A stretch of DNA of 17,216 nt. Origin: Coleofasciculus chthonoplastes F2-STO-03. GTDB taxonomy: Bacteria; Cyanobacteriota; Cyanobacteriia; Cyanobacteriales; Coleofasciculaceae. The notes under the pieces are model-generated. The model was given only the letters and a program-made list of their open reading frames with translations, did not search any database and was not told the DNA's origin. The translations under genes and the position numbers were made by a program. The stretch is taken from the NCBI GenBank assembly GCA_040222015.1, contig JAVJWO010000204.1:1-17216 (forward strand), in the 5' to 3' direction. Position 1 is the first letter of the stretch, and the number at the start of each line of letters is the position of its first letter. Of this stretch, positions 1,912 through 17,121 are shown piece after piece.

Positions 1912-3540
1912 CTATTCCCACTCAATCGTTCCCGGTGGCTTAGAGGTAATATCGTAAGCCACGCGATTAACACCTTTAACTTCATTCACAATCCGATTAG
2001 AAATGATTTCGAGTAAATCGTAAGGAACTCGTGACCAATCCGCCGTCATTCCGTCCTCACTACTCACCAAACGCAGCACAACCGGATACGCATACGTGCG
2101 CTGATCCCCCATTACCCCAACACTGCGAATCGGGAGTAAAACAGCAAACGCTTGCCACAGCTCATGATAAAGTCCATGTCGATTAATTTCCTGGCGAACA
2201 ATCAAATCCGCATCGCGCAGAATATTCAGCCGTTCTGCGGTGACTTCGCCAATAATCCGAATCGCTAATCCGGGTCCGGGGAAGGGATGACGCCGCACAA
2301 TTTCTTCGGGTAAACCAATGGAACGTCCCACTTTGCGAACTTCATCTTTGAATAGTTTCCGTAAGGGTTCCACTAGCTTAAAGCGCAAGTCTTTGGGTAA
2401 ACCCCCGACGTTATGATGACTCTTAATTTTCACCGCCACCCGTTCCCCGGTTTTGGGATCAACATTAGTATCCGCTGACTCAATCACATCGGGGTAAAGC
2501 GTACCCTGAGCCAAATAGTCAAAAGGACCCAGAATTTTGGATTGTTCTTCAAAGACACGAATAAACTCGTGACCAATACGACGACGCTTTTCTTCAGGAT
2601 CAGTCACCCCTTCCAGCCGAGCCAGGAAGCGATCGCGGGCGTTAACATATTCTACAGGAATATGAAATTCGCCCTGAAACAGCTTAACCAACCGTTCTGG
2701 CTCCAGTTTTCGCATGAAGCCTTGGTCAATAAACATACAGGTCAATTGGTCGCCAATCGCCTTGTGCAATAAGAAAGCTAGGGTTGAGGAATCCACACCA
2801 CCGGAAAGGGCTAGCAGTACCCGTTTACCTCCCACCTTGGCGCGAATTTCGCGAATGGCTTCCTCGACAAAAGCTTCCGTCGTCCAAGTGGGTTCGCAGT
2901 CGCAGATGTGATAAACGAAATTGCGAATTAACGCGATACCCCCAACCGAATGCACGACTTCCGGGTGAAACTGCACCCCATAGAGATGCTTCTGGTGATC
3001 CGCGATCGCGGCGCAAGGAGTATTATCGGTATGGGCTAGGACTTCAAAGCCGTCTGGCAATTCCTCACAGGAATCTGCATGACTCATCCATACAATTGAG
3101 TTTTCTTCCACGTTCGTCAACAAGTCCGTGGGATCATCGATATGCAGCGAGGCTTTGCCATACTCTCCCCGTTGAGAGCGGGTTACTTTCCCACCTAGTT
3201 GCTGTACCATTAACTGCATCCCATAGCAAACCCCCAAGATAGGGATACCCATAAGCAAAATTTCGGGATCACACTGAGGTGCAGCGTCATCGTAGACGGA
3301 ATTCGGACCTCCCGATAGAATAATGCCTTTGGGACTCAGTTGTCGGAGTTTTTCCGCGCTGGTGCGATAGGAGATAACTTCCGAATACACCTGAGTTTCG
3401 CGGATACGACGAGCGATGAGTTCTGAATATTGAGAGCCAAAATCCAGAATCACAATCATCTGGCGATGTAACTGGTTTTGTCGAGCGGTTGTGGGTAATG
3501 TCTCTACTGGTTGAGATGCGTTTCCTGTTGGTCTAGTCAC
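1912..3540 (-). CDS. guaA: GMP synthase (glutamine-hydrolysing)
   Basis: GATase motifs [15 protein letters not shown] and [10 protein letters not shown]-loop [17 protein letters not shown], and C-terminal [13 protein letters not shown]. Confidence 0.98.
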
Positions 3541-3667: not shown

Positions 3668-4774
3668 TTAACATAATTGCGAAAGTAATGTGGCTCCCGT
3701 TGGGCTAGTGACGATGACTTGGCGGTTGCGATCAAATAACAGGGAACCGACTCGTACTTCTTGCTGGCTATGCTTATAAATATAGTCTTGGCTACGTTTA
3801 TCTATCGTAGACGCGATCGCCCGATAAATCTGATTCACCCAATCACTCCCCTCCTTAGCATCCAATTGCCGCAAATAGGTCAACGCGGCTTCGGTGGTGG
3901 GACTGGTAAAAACTGCCTGTAAAATCGGCGTGGGTAATCCCACTTGAGCGCCATGAGCGGTGAGAATTTCCAAGCGTCCATCGGCTAAGTGATGATGGGT
4001 GTGAAAAATTCCACCGGCTAACTTGATCAGCTTACCATGATACCCGAATAATAAAAGTCCAGGGATTTCCTGCAATCCCGCCGCCACTAATAGGGGACCG
4101 AGCCAATTAGCAGTTTTGACTAATTGCTCTGGATTAATTCCCATCTGTCGCGCCAAACTTAACCCATTTTCTCCCACACAGAAGACTAAACAATCAAAAC
4201 AGAGGGCTTTAATTTGCAGTTGTTCGCGATAAGCTTGCAGTTGCTCAGGAGCGCTTAAGGGTTGAGAAATACCTGTCGTTCCCAACAATGATAATCCTTC
4301 TAGCACACCAAACGCAGCATTCGATGTCCGTTCTGCCAGTTTACGTCCTTCGGGTAAAATAATTGTCACCTGAATTTTCTCATCGGGTGCAAGTAAGCGA
4401 CTGAGATTCCTTTGTAATAAGGTCTCAGCATAGCCATAAATTGCCGCTTTTCCTGCGGCATTTAATTGTCGTCCAATTCCTTCACCGCCGACTATCTGTA
4501 CCTGTTCGGTTTGCTCAGATTGTCCCCATTCCACAACTGCCCAAATCGGAGTATTTCGGGTTATATCAATGTTATCCCCCGGATCACTGCGGGTAATTGC
4601 CAATGCCATTCCTGGGTGAATTCCGGCGACTTGCTCAATCGGAATGTCTGCCGTTTCTGGAGGTTCAATTAAGTCTACAGATACGGCATCTAGGGGTTTA
4701 GCTTGGCGCAACCACTGCAACGCCGCCATAGCGGAAGCACAAGCAAAGACGGGTAGAGTATATCCAGATCTCAA
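3668..4774 (-). CDS. cbiD: Cobalt-precorrin-5B C1-methyltransferase CbiD; 5' end apparently interrupted by an IS, TTG start formed at the IS junction
   Basis: Motifs RSGYTLPVFACA, SDPGDNIDITR, GGEGIG, RTSNAAFGV.EGLSLLGTTG and GYHGKLIKLAGGIFHTH. The rest of the frame is intact. Confidence 0.93.
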   Translation of the reverse strand: MRSGYTLPVFACASAMAALQWLRQAKPLDAVSVDLIEPPETADIPIEQVAGIHPGMALAITRSDPGDNIDITRNTPIWAVVEWGQSEQTEQVQIVGGEGIGRQLNAAGKAAIYGYAETLLQRNLSRLLAPDEKIQVTIILPEGRKLAERTSNAAFGVLEGLSLLGTTGISQPLSAPEQLQAYREQLQIKALCFDCLVFCVGENGLSLARQMGINPEQLVKTANWLGPLLVAAGLQEIPGLLLFGYHGKLIKLAGGIFHTHHHLADGRLEILTAHGAQVGLPTPILQAVFTSPTTEAALTYLRQLDAKEGSDWVNQIYRAIASTIDKRSQDYIYKHSQQEVRVGSLLFDRNRQVIVTSPTGATLLSQLC

Positions 4775-4940
4775 TGAACTACCCAGATTTACTTCGTTGA
4801 GGTCTGGGTTTCTACAACCAGACCAGTAGGACTGTGTTTCTGACGCTTCATTTGTCCTAGTTGCTTCATGCTTCCCGTTCGCTTGCGCTTACAAGTTTCT
4901 GAAGTAGAGCTAGAGACATCAGCGTCTACGAGGCTCGTTC
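4755..4940 (-). ncRNA. Predicted TnpB omega-RNA (reRNA): scaffold overlapping the tnpB 3' end and right end, with guide from flanking cbiD sequence
   Basis: Inferred from the established architecture of IS605 TnpB systems. Only the right-end hairpin is seen directly, and the boundaries are approximate. Confidence 0.55.
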
Positions 4941-6114
4941 CAAACCCCGGTAGAATTCCTAACGCCCACAAAAGCATTACCAAAGCAGCGGCTAAATCGC
5001 GATCCATTGTGAGTCCACATTTATGACAATGGTGAACTCTTTCATCTAAGGTCTTTTTTTGTTGATTTCCACAGTTAGGACAAGTCTGGGATGGTTTGAC
5101 TTTTCGAGTAGGAACCTCAACAAAGACTCCGCCCGCGTCTTTTACCTTGTATTCAATCGCTGACCTCAGCATTCCCATTCCCACGTCTAAAATGGATTTG
5201 TTTAGTCCAGCCTTTTGCTTTTTTCGTTTACCTTTTTTAGAAGAGCGGGTCATTTTAGAGACTTCTAGTTTTGACCTAGCAACGAAGCTATTACAGCGAA
5301 CAATATCTGTTGCTACTTGGTGTACCCAGTTTTGACGCTGATTAGCTACCTTACGGGAAAATTTGCTAATTTTCGCTTGGGCTTTTTTCCACCGACTAGA
5401 GCCTTTCTGTTTCTTCTTTCTATTGGGCGCTGTCTTACGACGCTTTCCCTTGGAAAGATGCTTGATTTTTGCCTCAGCTTTTCGTAGAAAATTAGGGGGC
5501 CTCATAAAAGAATGGTTTTCCCCATCAGTTATCGCTAATGCCGACTTGCAACCAAAGTCGATGCCAACTGAACCAAAATCTGTTTGTCTTGTCGCCGCCT
5601 TTAATTCAGTTAGATTAACGGTTATACTTGCATACCATTTTTCATTACGGTAGACAAGGGTGCAGGTTGTTGGAATCCCCCAGATCCGGGCTTTGCCGCG
5701 CATTTGGATTGAACCAATTTTGGCTAATTCCAGATAACCGTTATCACCCGTTGTGTGAGCCTTCCATCCCGTTTTACTTGGATAAGTCCAGCCAGAGTAA
5801 TGCTTAATTGACTTGTATTTAGGACGTTTTGCTAACCCTTTTAACCACCGATTAAATGCGTAATCAACACGATTTAAAGTGGCTTGTAGAGTCATGCAGT
5901 TGCATTCCTTATACTCTGTCCAAACTTCCTTAAAAGCAGGTAAAGAGTTTTGTTGCTCGAAATAGTCAACCCGATGGTTAAACTTTTGGTACTGGGTGAA
6001 CCGATTACAAACAGCAGCGTTGTACAAATCCTTGTGCAACTTACGGTGATACCGCAATGTCTGCTCTTGCTTTTTATTGGGGTATAGCCGAAAAGTTACA
6101 CGTCTTGTTGGCAT
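4789..6114 (-). CDS. tnpB: RNA-guided endonuclease TnpB family protein, possibly nuclease-inactive
   Basis: N-terminal TFRLYPNKKQ, RuvC-I GIDFG (D186), zinc ribbon PSQTCPNCG..HCHKCG, RuvC-III DRD (D373). AGGAGG RBS at 6128-6123. The RuvC-II region reads FVARSKL. Confidence 0.95.
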   Translation of the reverse strand: MPTRRVTFRLYPNKKQEQTLRYHRKLHKDLYNAAVCNRFTQYQKFNHRVDYFEQQNSLPAFKEVWTEYKECNCMTLQATLNRVDYAFNRWLKGLAKRPKYKSIKHYSGWTYPSKTGWKAHTTGDNGYLELAKIGSIQMRGKARIWGIPTTCTLVYRNEKWYASITVNLTELKAATRQTDFGSVGIDFGCKSALAITDGENHSFMRPPNFLRKAEAKIKHLSKGKRRKTAPNRKKKQKGSSRWKKAQAKISKFSRKVANQRQNWVHQVATDIVRCNSFVARSKLEVSKMTRSSKKGKRKKQKAGLNKSILDVGMGMLRSAIEYKVKDAGGVFVEVPTRKVKPSQTCPNCGNQQKKTLDERVHHCHKCGLTMDRDLAAALVMLLWALGILPGFGTSLVDADVSSSTSETCKRKRTGSMKQLGQMKRQKHSPTGLVVETQTSTK

Positions 6115-6148
6115 CGCCGTTCCCTCCTGTTACACTTAACATAGCATA

Positions 6149-6389
6149 TTGAGAGATCACGTTCATCTATTGGTAGATTTTCACCCAGACAACCACCTAT
6201 CATCTCTGATTGGTAGCATGAAGTCTGCATCTAGTCGAATCATCAGAAAAGACTTTGCTGCTCAACTGTCAAAAACTCATACTAAGTCGGCATTTTGGTC
6301 AGGTTCTTATTATGTTGCTTCCACTGGTGGTGCGCCCATTGAGAGCAATTTTGGCTTACATCAAATCCCAAGACGCACCTCAAAATTAA
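6149..6389 (+). pseudogene. tnpA: IS200-type Y1 transposase TnpA remnant (5'-deleted, +1 frameshift)
   Basis: HUH motif DHVHLL, then MKSASSR and FWSGSYYVASTGGAPIE. The catalytic helix ILAYIKSQ lies in another frame (6348-6389, TAA), so the frameshift is near 6345. The region upstream of HUH is missing. Confidence 0.88.
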
Positions 6390-6436
6390 CCCTGAGCCAA
6401 GTCGAAGGGTTGATTGCCTCCGTTCCTCCGGCAATC

Positions 6437-6498
6437 CGCTATCCCTCCCCACCCTCCTGAGTCTGCGAAGGATCTGCTGAGGGTGGAGAGGGATAGCG
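6437..6498. other. IS left-end subterminal hairpin
   Basis: CGCTATCCCTCCCCACCCTC (6437-6456) pairs with GAGGGTGGAGAGGGATAGCG (6479-6498) at 19 of 20 positions. Confidence 0.8.
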
Positions 6499-6550
6499 AA
6501 CACGTTGACATGGTAGATCATTAGATTCTGCACTTGGACAAAGCGACGCC

Positions 6551-7024
6551 CTAAACCCAGCCAATAACATCCCGAATCTGAGACTTGGCATACTCGCAGT
6601 CAATATGCTGCTGTGCTTTAGATAACGCGGTTTCCGGTCGCTTGTACCAGCGTTGCGATCGAATACAAAGACCATCTCGTCGAGTGGCTTCCCAGGAATA
6701 ACGGGCGCGGTCTACTACCAACCACACTTTATAACCCCGATGCTGTTGTTGGGGAAATTTCAACAGACCAATCTCAGCTAGCACGCTTAAGCGCATCTGG
6801 GAACGAGCTAACCGTTTCATCAACTCCAGAAAGCAAACAGCAGCGCGTTTAGCATCATCATGAGTTGGGTAACGATAGCGATCTCTGGGTTCAAACTTAA
6901 AGTCAGATCCAATCAGTGAAAACCGGAACTTCCCGGACGCTTCCTCAACAAAGGTGACTCGCCAGGAGGTGTTGGGATACCGAACGCAGAAGCCAGAAGG
7001 CTGAATTTTGACCGTCGCTGTCAT
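6551..7024 (-). CDS. Hypothetical basic protein with an apparent two-fold internal repeat
   Basis: Protein-like ORF (ATG 7024, alternative TTG 7036). It ends about 40 nt upstream of the inferred original cbiD ATG. No family recognised. Confidence 0.6.
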   Translation of the reverse strand: MTATVKIQPSGFCVRYPNTSWRVTFVEEASGKFRFSLIGSDFKFEPRDRYRYPTHDDAKRAAVCFLELMKRLARSQMRLSVLAEIGLLKFPQQQHRGYKVWLVVDRARYSWEATRRDGLCIRSQRWYKRPETALSKAQQHIDCEYAKSQIRDVIGWV

Positions 7025-7151
7025 CTGAAGTCTCAAGTATAAAGGGTGGAAGGCATTGAAAGAGGGTAGAAATCACCATCAAGATTGTCAGGGCGTCTCG
7101 CTGAAACAGGAAGCGTTACTATGCCACAATCCATTGGGAGCATATCACCTT

Positions 7152-7251
7152 TGTAGGTTGGGTCTTTGGAACGTAGGCGGAGCCTTCTTTCCGAGTAACC
7201 CAACTGCCAAAATCTCTTGTTGGGTAACGCTTGCGCTCTACCCAACCTACA
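7152..7251. repeat. REPIN-like element with GTAGGTTGGGT / ACCCAACCTAC termini
   Basis: 12-bp terminal inverted repeat TGTAGGTTGGGT (7152) / ACCCAACCTACA (7240), with inner ACCCAAC and GTTGGGT arms forming two inverted REP hairpins. Confidence 0.8.
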
Positions 7252-7444
7252 GTAATGTTTTGTGCTATCACGCTCCATACTCCCCAATCCATAATAGCCT
7301 TGCCAGCCCGGTATCCGCCTCAGTAAATTGTCGCATGTTCTCAGAAAAAAGTTGATGCTGATCTACCTATCTCAGGCTGGGAAATGCTAAGTTAATGGCA
7401 CTGACTTAAAAGCATTTTCATATCGCCGAAACCCTTGATATACC

Positions 7445-12045: not shown

Positions 12046-13764
12046 ATGAGTTACCGAATGGATCGCCGCGCTTACGCTGAAACTTATGGTCCGACTGTAG
12101 GCGATCGCATCCGTCTCGCTGATACTGAATTGTTCATTGAAGTGGAACGCGATTTCACCACTTATGGCGATGAAGTCAAATTTGGTGGCGGTAAAGTCAT
12201 TCGGGATGGGATGGGACAATCTCCGATATCTAATGCGGATGGGGCGGTGGATCTGGTGATTACCAATGCCCTAATTTTGGATTGGTGGGGAATTGTCAAA
12301 GCTGATATTGGGATTAAAGACGGTAAGATTTTCCAGATTGGCAAAGCTGGAAATCCCAATATTCAAGATAACGTCGATATTATTATTGGTCCGGGGACGG
12401 AAGCCGTAGCGGGGGAAGGGATGATTCTCACCGCTGGGGGGATTGATTCCCATATTCACTTTATCTGTCCCCAACAAATTGAAGTGGCGATCGCATCCGG
12501 GATTACCACGATGTTAGGCGGGGGTACGGGACCGGCTACCGGTACCAACGCCACGACTTGTACACCGGGTCCCTGGAATATTTATCGGATGCTGCAAGCG
12601 GCTGATGCGTTTCCGGTAAACTTGGGATTTTTGGGTAAAGGCAATAGTAGTCAACCCCAAGGACTTGTAGAACAAGTGCTAGCAGGGGCAATGGGGTTAA
12701 AGTTACACGAAGATTGGGGAACTACGCCAGCCACAATAGACACCTGTCTCAGTGTCGCCGATGACTATGATATTCAAGTCGCCATTCATACCGACACCCT
12801 CAACGAAGCCGGATTTGTAGAAAACACGATCGCGGCATTCAAAAACCGCGCCATCCATACCTACCATACCGAAGGTGCAGGCGGGGGTCATGCCCCTGAT
12901 ATTATCAAGGTTTGTGGTCAAGCTAATGTTCTACCCTCATCCACGAATCCCACTCGCCCCTATACGATGAACACCCTGGAAGAACATCTGGATATGTTGA
13001 TGGTATGTCATCACTTAGATCGGGGGATTCCAGAAGATGTCGCCTTTGCCGAGTCTCGGATTCGCCGGGAAACGATCGCGGCTGAGGATATTTTGCACGA
13101 TTTAGGCGCATTTAGTATGATTGCCTCCGATTCCCAGGCGATGGGGCGAGTTGGGGAAGTGATTATTCGCACCTGGCAAACGGCGCACAAGATGAAAGTG
13201 CAACGGGGCGTTTTATCTTCATCCTCTGGGGAAATGGTGGATCATGATAACTTCCGGGCAAAGCGGTATGTAGCAAAGTACACGATTAACCCCGCCATTA
13301 CCCATGGTATTGCTGACTATGTGGGTTCAGTGGAGAAAGGGAAGCTGGCAGACTTGTGTTTATGGAAACCCGCCTTTTTTGGCGTGAAACCGGAGATTGT
13401 GATCAAAGGGGGTATGATCGCCTGGTCACAGATGGGGGATGCTAATGCCAGTATTCCCACACCCCAACCGATTCACAGCCGCCCCATGTTTGGCAGTTTT
13501 GGCGGTGCGATCGCGGCTACGTCGTTAACCTTTGTATCTCAAGCGGCATTAGACCGAGACATTGCTACACAATTGAAGTTACAAAAATCTGCCGTTGCGG
13601 TGTCCAATACGCGGCAAGTGAGTAAGCGAGATATGAAATTAAATGATGCATTACCTCAGATGGAGGTTGATCCAGAAACCTATCAAGTTAGGGCAGATGG
13701 AGAATTGTTAATTTGCGAACCAGCTAAGAGTTTACCCATGGCACAGCGTTACTTTTTGTTTTAA
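12046..13764 (+). CDS. ureC: Urease subunit alpha
   Basis: [14 protein letters not shown], nickel ligands [22 protein letters not shown] and HTEGAGGGH, flap [17 protein letters not shown], and C-terminal [10 protein letters not shown]. Confidence 0.99.
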
Positions 13765-16816: not shown

Positions 16817-16857
16817 TCAGGGGTAAACGACTGTAGGACTTATTGATTATGAATCAG

Positions 16858-17107
16858 GGCGGGTTTTGTTGTTCCGTTATCGGTGGGGAGGGCGGGTTTT
16901 GTTGTTCCGTTAGTGGAGAGGGCGGGTTTTGTTGTTCCGTTAGTGGAGAGGGCGGGTTTTGTTGTTCCGTTAGTGGAGAGGGCGGGTTTTGTTGTTCCGT
17001 TATCGGTGGAGAGGGCGGGTTTTGTTGTTCCGTTATCGGTGGGGAGGGCGGGTTTTGTTGTTCCGTTATCGGTGGGGAGGGCGGGTTTTGTTGTTCATTT
17101 ATCGGTG
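16858..17107. repeat. Tandem array of eight 33/30-bp units (GGCGGGTTTTGTTGTTCCGTTA[TCG]GTGGRGAG)
   Basis: Units start at 16858 (33), 16891, 16921 and 16951 (30 each), 16981, 17014 and 17047 (33 each), and 17080 (divergent). The reverse complement matches the 1-132 unit at 31 of 33 positions. Confidence 0.95.
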
Positions 17108-17121
17108 ACTAGCTGAATTTA

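Follow-up and report, generated by a model that had tools for sequence, protein, structure and literature searches.

The DNA considered here (the window) is a stretch of 17,216 nucleotides (nt) from Coleofasciculus chthonoplastes F2-STO-03 (assembly GCA_040222015.1, contig JAVJWO010000204.1), in which an IS200/IS605 element with a tnpB gene occupies the third codon of cbiD. This is one insertion that is present on at least three host haplotypes and arrived there after the flanks had diverged, likely without the transposase TnpA. Judging from the sequences, RNA-guided homing of TnpB onto empty alleles, and not jumping, rather probably carried the element from one host lineage to another. This reading builds on the observed ends of the element, its empty site, the loss of its left guide and an undisrupted cbiD frame, and on the recurrence of the insertion on different haplotypes, whose flanks differ more than the element does. 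The features concerned are as follows.

3668 to 4774, minus strand: cbiD, encoding cobalt-precorrin-5B C1-methyltransferase, intact, 368 amino acids from TTG, matching PF01888.
4774 to 6504, minus strand: IS200/IS605 element of 1,731 bp, without target duplication, in codon 3 of cbiD.
6505 to 6511, minus strand: stranded native start ATG TCA A, in which TCAA (6508 to 6505) is the target motif.
4772 to 4774, minus strand: junction TTG, composed of the element's T and the TG of the former codon-3 ATG.
4774 to 4812, minus strand: right end, with the guide GAAA (4812 to 4809), a hairpin (4808 to 4782) and the end motif TCAT (4777 to 4774).
4808 to 4782, minus strand: right-end hairpin, weakened in the window at 4789 to 4788, predicted 3' part of the omega-RNA scaffold.
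4754 to 4773, minus strand: predicted omega-RNA guide, identical with the first cbiD codons, which would match the empty TCAA allele.
6437 to 6498, minus strand: left-end hairpin extended to a 20-bp stem, with CCCT at the guide position (6492 to 6489), where sister copies have GAGT.
4789 to 6114, minus strand: tnpB, an open frame of 441 amino acids, with the RuvC-II Glu replaced by Ser281 (5274 to 5272).
6123 to 6146, minus strand: remaining tnpB leader (TG-n-TATGTT and AGGAGG), read by eye; the promoter scan made no call there.
6155 to 6387, plus strand: tnpA remnant (Y1 HUH) with the first ~66 codons deleted and a frameshift near the 3' end; its 3' limit is approximate.

On the minus strand the native ATG at 6511 is followed by TCAA, the element (6504 to 4774) and TTG (4774 to 4772). 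Removal of 4774-6504 in silico gives MSMRSGY, and removal of 4775-6505 gives MSLRSGY. The search for cbiD covered 41 genomes, with a match in 40, and 30 cbiD loci were read. The empty site ATG TCA ATG AGA TCT was found in G005, G001, L031 and L032, and the variant ATG TCA ATA AGA in G002 and G007. Since G004, G003 and G008 lack the first ATG and keep the second, the latter, which is the codon turned into TTG by the element, is the likely natural start in these three relatives. A pattern scan of metagenomes for filled and empty junctions returned two matches, both empty.

The ends of the element agree with those of its family. All six right ends found in the assembly containing the window (G000, 99.99% complete), the window copy included, terminate in TTCAT, and the TCAT terminus is present in 36 of the 43 right ends scored across the family. 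Left ends are preceded by TCAA or TTAA, and subterminal hairpins were found at both element ends. Guide pairing was scored for 18 left ends, ten further rows representing the opposite hairpin arm having been dropped. Target and guide were TCAA with GAGT in 14 of them, TTAA with AAGT in two and AGAA with CTGT in one, while the guide was absent in one; thus 17 of the 18 covary with their target, and the right guide GAAA pairs with TCAT. In such pairing the fourth guide base takes part (from AAAG/TTAC). For IS608, guide bases 1 and 2 are described as pairing with bases 1 and 2 of the cleavage site, the third base being unpaired (PMC3201880). This covariation across the family fixes the boundaries at 4774 and 6504, and together with the TCAA empty sites it rules out the alternative boundaries 4775-6505. 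Empty sites of other element copies were sought in G000 for 11 loci; two lean to TCAA/TTAA, and the others were ambiguous or unmatched.

The first-pass annotation of this DNA had placed an IS605 element in the first codons of cbiD, with TCAA as the target, and had derived the joint ATG TCA ATG AGA by removing the element. Both claims are borne out by the empty relatives and the guide covariation, and the ends match the TTCAT right ends and TCAA/TTAA left contexts of the other copies. It had also described an intact cbiD frame from a junction TTG lying 14 nt after the tnpB stop, which holds as well (stop at 4791-4789).

The left hairpin is extended by a second copy of the arm on its 3' side, and CCCT has thereby taken the place of GAGT. 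This guide-less extended pattern was found in two of 52 genomes, namely in the window copy and in an unrelated copy of G008 (C155:16911-16937; L105, L127), whose left guide is gone through a like hairpin extension. Because the G008 copy repeats it, the extension could be a recurrent route by which such elements become fixed. The tnpA remnant matches PF01797 (E 3.5e-17) over profile positions 49-112 of 121, while sister copies have full frames. Mutation of the guide is reported to abolish the synaptic complex in IS608 (PMC3201880) and excision in ISGst (10.1101/2023.03.14.532601). With the left guide overwritten and tnpA broken, excision of the window copy by TnpA supplied in trans is unlikely, and the copy can likely no longer jump. 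An intact-looking tnpA of the same family is present in G000 (C214:19142-19570), but its product would likely not excise the window copy. The earlier suggestion that cbiD might depend on excision in trans is therefore not supported. Positions 6386-6409 of the window, after the tnpA stop, hold a 24-bp insert resembling repetitive extragenic palindromes, which occurs in four G000 copies and not in C58.

The same insertion was traced in public sequencing runs, of which eight of 24 were analysed (X1-X7 and X9), with matches taken from the contigs listed. Runs with the filled allele span studies P1, P2, P3 and P6, and X2, X4, X5 and X6 belong to a single study. Contigs with filled junctions were found in X1, X2, X3, X6 and X9, and the left junction is bridged by contigs in X5, X6 and X9. 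The X2 and X3 contigs leading from cbiD into the right end show 44 and 48 differences from the window over 1.4 kb. Between the window and X6, the element has 11 differences in ~1,370 bp (0.8%) and the flanks have 30 in 770 bp (3.9%), three of the 30 being derived from the contig total and the rest from listed rows; the Fisher p of ~1e-6 for this contrast is overstated since changes cluster. The nearest flank differences of X6 lie at 6523 and 4742, that is, 19 and 32 bp from the junctions. Any co-conversion tract at cbiD is thus shorter than 19 bp on the left and 32 bp on the right, a region holding no informative single-nucleotide polymorphism (SNP). A long co-conversion tract, at first suspected from the matches listed, was ruled out by these X6 differences near the junctions. 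The flank haplotype of X5 differs at 8 of 739 positions from the empty G005 and at 24 of 739 from the filled window.

The guide-less left end, including an extra change, is common to the window, X5 (record 7) and X6 (record 16), a shared state that traces these copies back to one insertion. Against the window element, the remaining copies of G000 and of the fetched loci reach 89% identity at most. The full right hairpin is retained in these run copies, and in X2-X6 the deletion in tnpA is larger (joint 6154-6422). Changes between the window element and these copies are mostly clustered multi-base changes (5273-5276, 5358-5361, 4788-4789), and the one at 5273-5276 is also present in the broken paralog C214b.

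The state of the nuclease differs between these copies. The window's TnpB belongs to its family by NF040570 (239.6 bits, cut-off 100) and by matches to PF01385 and PF07282. In an alignment with two solved relatives, its Ser281 takes the place of the RuvC-II Glu of VEDL/FEDL, which leaves the D-E-D triad incomplete. The Glu is retained in 18 of 18 related loci listed, and also in the X2-X7 copies, where contigs at full depth disagree with the window at 5273, 5274 and 5276; the letters of the window's Ser281 were confirmed in X1. The TTGACA of the tnpB leader in other copies is deleted in the window copy. The predicted guide has no target elsewhere in G000, where TCAA followed by eight guide bases gave 0 matches.

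In X4, X5 and X7 a joint 4774-6506 was found (depth 7, 14 and 5.5). The contigs end exactly at 4777 and 6506 with three shared letters, so that TCAT is kept and the allele reads MSLRSGY in frame. This allele stands beside the filled one in X4 and X5, while for X7 the filled allele is deduced from contig ends only. The first-pass annotation had proposed to look for excised alleles; what the runs hold is this joint shifted by one nt and not the precise product of TnpA. No TCAA joint was present among the joints listed in the eight runs, and X1 was without any empty joint. The TCAT allele could have arisen by deletion between two TCA triplets or by aborted homing repair, and it would lack the predicted target motif of TnpB.

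The following course of events would account for these data. A single TnpA insertion at TCAA would have split the codon-3 ATG. Transcription of cbiD would then pass through the element, with re-initiation at the TTG by ribosomes ending tnpB 14 nt upstream. Lengthening of the left hairpin by template switching would have erased the guide. Guided by the first cbiD codons, TnpB would cut alleles with the empty TCAA site, and their repair would bring in the element with little flank. Finally, in the window's lineage the nuclease would have degenerated (Glu281 to Ser), and the in-frame TCAT allele would escape cutting. Cutting of the empty site and TCAA as the target motif of TnpB are predictions by analogy, and the cbiD transcript and protein start are predicted as well.

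The insertion is presumably tolerated because the T of its right end leaves an in-frame TTG predicted to start CbiD. Quite probably CbiD is translated from this codon. The frame 3668-4774 passes TIGR00312 (352.6 bits, cut-off 200) and contains no stop or frameshift, and none is listed for the haplotypes of the runs. No ATG, GTG or TTG start lies in frame upstream of the junction TTG, and the next start is codon 16, within the conserved motif region. The TTG has no clear Shine-Dalgarno sequence of its own and stands in a predicted structured region. Since tnpB keeps its Shine-Dalgarno sequence and its stop precedes the TTG by 14 nt, translational coupling from tnpB to cbiD may operate, and the dependence of cbiD on tnpB read-through is plausible. 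It was considered whether the change in the window's right hairpin opens the cbiD start; the DNA hairpin goes from -10.8 to -5.7 kcal/mol, but the openness of the RNA is no higher (0.17 vs 0.23), and this was rejected. TnpB is reported to cut its own mRNA through RuvC (PMC10278001), so by analogy the loss of Glu might spare the joint tnpB-cbiD transcript.

In the RNA run X9, contigs cross both junctions at depth 5-6, although the right-end contig reaches 30 letters into the element and carry-over of DNA may account for them. The genome G000 contains metH and intact-looking cobA, cbiF, cbiG-H and cbiE-T, while metE, btuB and TonB receptors gave no match in it; because metH is present and metE gave no match, cbiD is likely still used. 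The cbiD differences listed for the X2/X5 haplotype against the window comprise 22 synonymous and 7 non-synonymous changes, and the ratio of non-synonymous to synonymous polymorphism (pN/pS) of 0.10 may predate the insertion. The right-end region 4774-4875 is covered in X9 by contigs at depth ~120, and a miniature derivative with the ends only (joint 4872-6419) by contigs at depth 66, both from other copies. The right-end RNA contigs fit an abundant omega-RNA; contigs cannot show its level or strand.

The same pattern was sought across the genus in the best 30 PF01385 loci each of G005, G002, G007 and G001, that is, the best 120 of 203 matches. One hundred full-length TnpB loci were compared, the element ends being unmapped for most pairs. 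Ten cross-genome pairs share a site. The divergence of the open reading frame (ORF) is at most 1% in seven of them and below that of the flanks in nine (pooled, 193/11,529 vs 532/9,164), and identity mostly ends close to the element. As host background, 200 host windows of 500 bp were taken, 107 of which had a unique match in G000, the only genome of this comparison; one of the 107 lies within 1%. The paralogs of four shared-site elements in G000 are at most 88% alike over their length. On this basis it is a tentative generalization, held at slightly less than an even chance, that in mat cyanobacteria TnpB elements serve as RNA-guided homing endonucleases which drive fixed chromosomal insertions across 3-8% divergence from one species-level lineage to another without TnpA. 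The cbiD site would then display the whole cycle, from the invasion of a needed gene, rendered harmless by the start codon at the right end, through immobility and decay of the nuclease to an in-frame escape allele.

An eleventh case, L065 with G000:C178 at ~75,000-76,700, has 18/1,640 differences inside, 70/1,239 on the left and 39/1,438 on the right. A different TnpB element (L156:2301, G000:C46 ~66,400) is identical in G005 and G000 (0/1,354; flanks 5.9%). Its end coincides with the first ATG of a DUF3038 gene, this putative start codon being kept across the junction, and the site is empty in L309, L310, L312 and L316. The latter case suggests that start-codon replacement is a repeated way for such elements to be tolerated.

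Several points weigh against homing as the mode of spread and against a working start at the TTG. The data from the runs are metagenome contigs, and across the element interior the sequence is joined through depth and not by a single contig. Several filled runs (X2, X4, X5, X6) come from one study, and X1 may be the source of the window. All eight genomes from the same genus are either empty at cbiD or masked there (G006 upstream), which means that the filled allele has not gone to fixation in the genus. A co-conversion tract, the direct footprint of break repair, was not found at cbiD. Two of the ten shared-site pairs do not fit (L178 is mosaic, and L232 with 5.5% is old), and for six pairs between other genomes no empty alleles were found in G000. 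The control with DDE elements, with 36 full-length among 60 loci, gave one shared locus, which is probably a resident gene. As to the start, folding predictions give a lower openness for the TTG region than for the native one (unpaired 0.17-0.23 vs 0.43), and the promoter and terminator scan of the window gave counts equal to those of shuffled sequences, with no promoter on the minus strand.

The filled allele could have been moved by ordinary homologous recombination without nuclease drive, the flanks being replaced later. The flank SNPs are mosaic among G001-G007, from which it follows that these lineages recombine, and a DDE control of equal size could not be built. Such a course is nonetheless rather unlikely, as near-identity within 1% of G000 was seen in one of 107 host windows against seven of ten shared TnpB pairs, identity at cbiD stops near the element on both sides (19 and 32 bp), and a neutral or costly insertion lacks a reason to lose its flanks and yet persist. 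An old insertion, inherited vertically with losses and homogenised in its interior by conversion from circulating copies, appears quite improbable. It would agree with the mosaic L178 and with the occurrence of the Ser variant in the broken paralog C214b, a hint that copies have exchanged sequence by conversion, and the 83-bp part of the left end with its one difference is too short alone for dating. On the other hand, a donor paralog above 89% is absent from G000, G005 would have had to return precisely to TCAA despite the missing left guide, and the X5 flanks group with the empty G005.

Restoration of cbiD by precise excision via TnpA in trans, or repeated TnpA insertion at the same site, is highly improbable, even though the apparently intact tnpA of G000 exists and both guide and end motif are preserved at the right end. 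Both would have to contend with the erased left guide, whose mutation abolishes complex formation or excision in IS608 and ISGst, and with the lack of a TCAA joint among those listed in the eight runs and of any empty joint in X1. A repeated hit at cbiD is improbable also because G000 has 105,327 TCAA sites. The remaining alternative is that cbiD is silenced, or nearly so, and that filled strains use cobamide or methionine from the mat community. The TTG with no clear Shine-Dalgarno sequence in a structured region would agree with this, as would the in-frame empty alleles beside filled ones in X4 and X5, such as selection for reversion would give, and after a recent arrival there is little time for decay, so pN/pS may reflect the time before the insertion. 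This is still unlikely in view of the undisrupted cbiD frames, of the failure to find metE, btuB or TonB receptors in the 99.99% complete G000, and of the X9 RNA contigs over both junctions, with the reservation on DNA carry-over and the 30 letters given above.

Two host genes flank the locus in the window.

6551 to 7036, minus strand: upstream host ORF of 161 amino acids, with its stop 39 nt before the native cbiD ATG; this neighbour is also present in empty relatives.
1912 to 3540, minus strand: guaA (GMP synthase), 127 nt downstream of cbiD.

The upstream ORF gave no Pfam or NCBIfam match. At 7135-7285, ~150 bp are absent in several relatives and many loose contig ends occur, which likely marks a small repeated element. 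A match to the Rfam family 5_ureB_sRNA (12197-12487, minus strand) is antisense to the gene of the urease alpha-subunit, and a tandem repeat at 16843-17116 translates into repeated GGFCCSV units. Among more distant genomes, cbiD matches in two pieces in G016:C128, G023:C66 and G037:C3. A cobalamin riboswitch at G000:C138:3842-3988 (L124) adjoins an ORF, which we take to be CobW-like from its motif.

TnpB is among the commonest bacterial genes. The reason for its persistence has so far been argued from laboratory sister chromosomes and plasmids. TnpB-driven spread independent of TnpA was demonstrated in multicopy plasmids (10.1101/2025.02.20.638934), and a 2026 review (PMC13565253) terms copying to orthologous sites theoretical and cites the plasmid case. 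The literature search gave no report of the cbiD site or of natural inter-lineage chromosomal homing by TnpB, subscription journals being mostly outside its coverage. An element that its transposase can probably no longer move, yet that has crossed between lineages and comes in presumed live, dead and escape forms, opens inter-lineage homing to a direct test.

With the IS605 group (IS608, ISDra2 and ISGst; PMC3201880 and 10.1101/2023.03.14.532601) the element shares the divergent orientation of tnpA and tnpB, the subterminal hairpins, the guide-target covariation and the insertion 3' of a tetranucleotide that is not duplicated. Unlike in these, the left guide of the window copy is gone, its tnpA is broken and its TnpB is without the RuvC-II glutamate, and the copy resides in the start region of a host gene that is kept in frame. 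Restorative homing by TnpB (Meers et al.) and the plasmid drive (10.1101/2025.02.20.638934) share with it the guide from the right flank, the empty site as predicted target and the dispensability of TnpA; however, those are laboratory systems with sister chromosomes or plasmids, whereas here the loci are natural, chromosomal and several percent apart. IStrons resemble the element as TnpB elements tolerated within a host gene, but an IStron was rejected, as the element has no Rfam group I intron match and no space for such an intron: the tnpB stop lies 16 nt from the element's end, and the 390 nt in front of tnpB belong to the tnpA remnant. The RuvC-inactivating change recalls TldR, the nuclease-dead TnpB repressors. 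In contrast to these, the window's TnpB is still within its transposon and the change is recent and lineage-specific; for the former reason, and with 0 matches of TCAA and the 8-nt guide in G000, the TldR reading was rejected too. With the homing endonucleases of introns and inteins (PMC13565253) the likeness lies in the conserved needed gene, a presumably unharmed product, invasion, decay of the nuclease and putative escape alleles. The cbiD element differs from them in that the nuclease is RNA-guided and the gene would be spared by a replacement start codon, so that it would represent a splicing-free way of residing in a needed gene.

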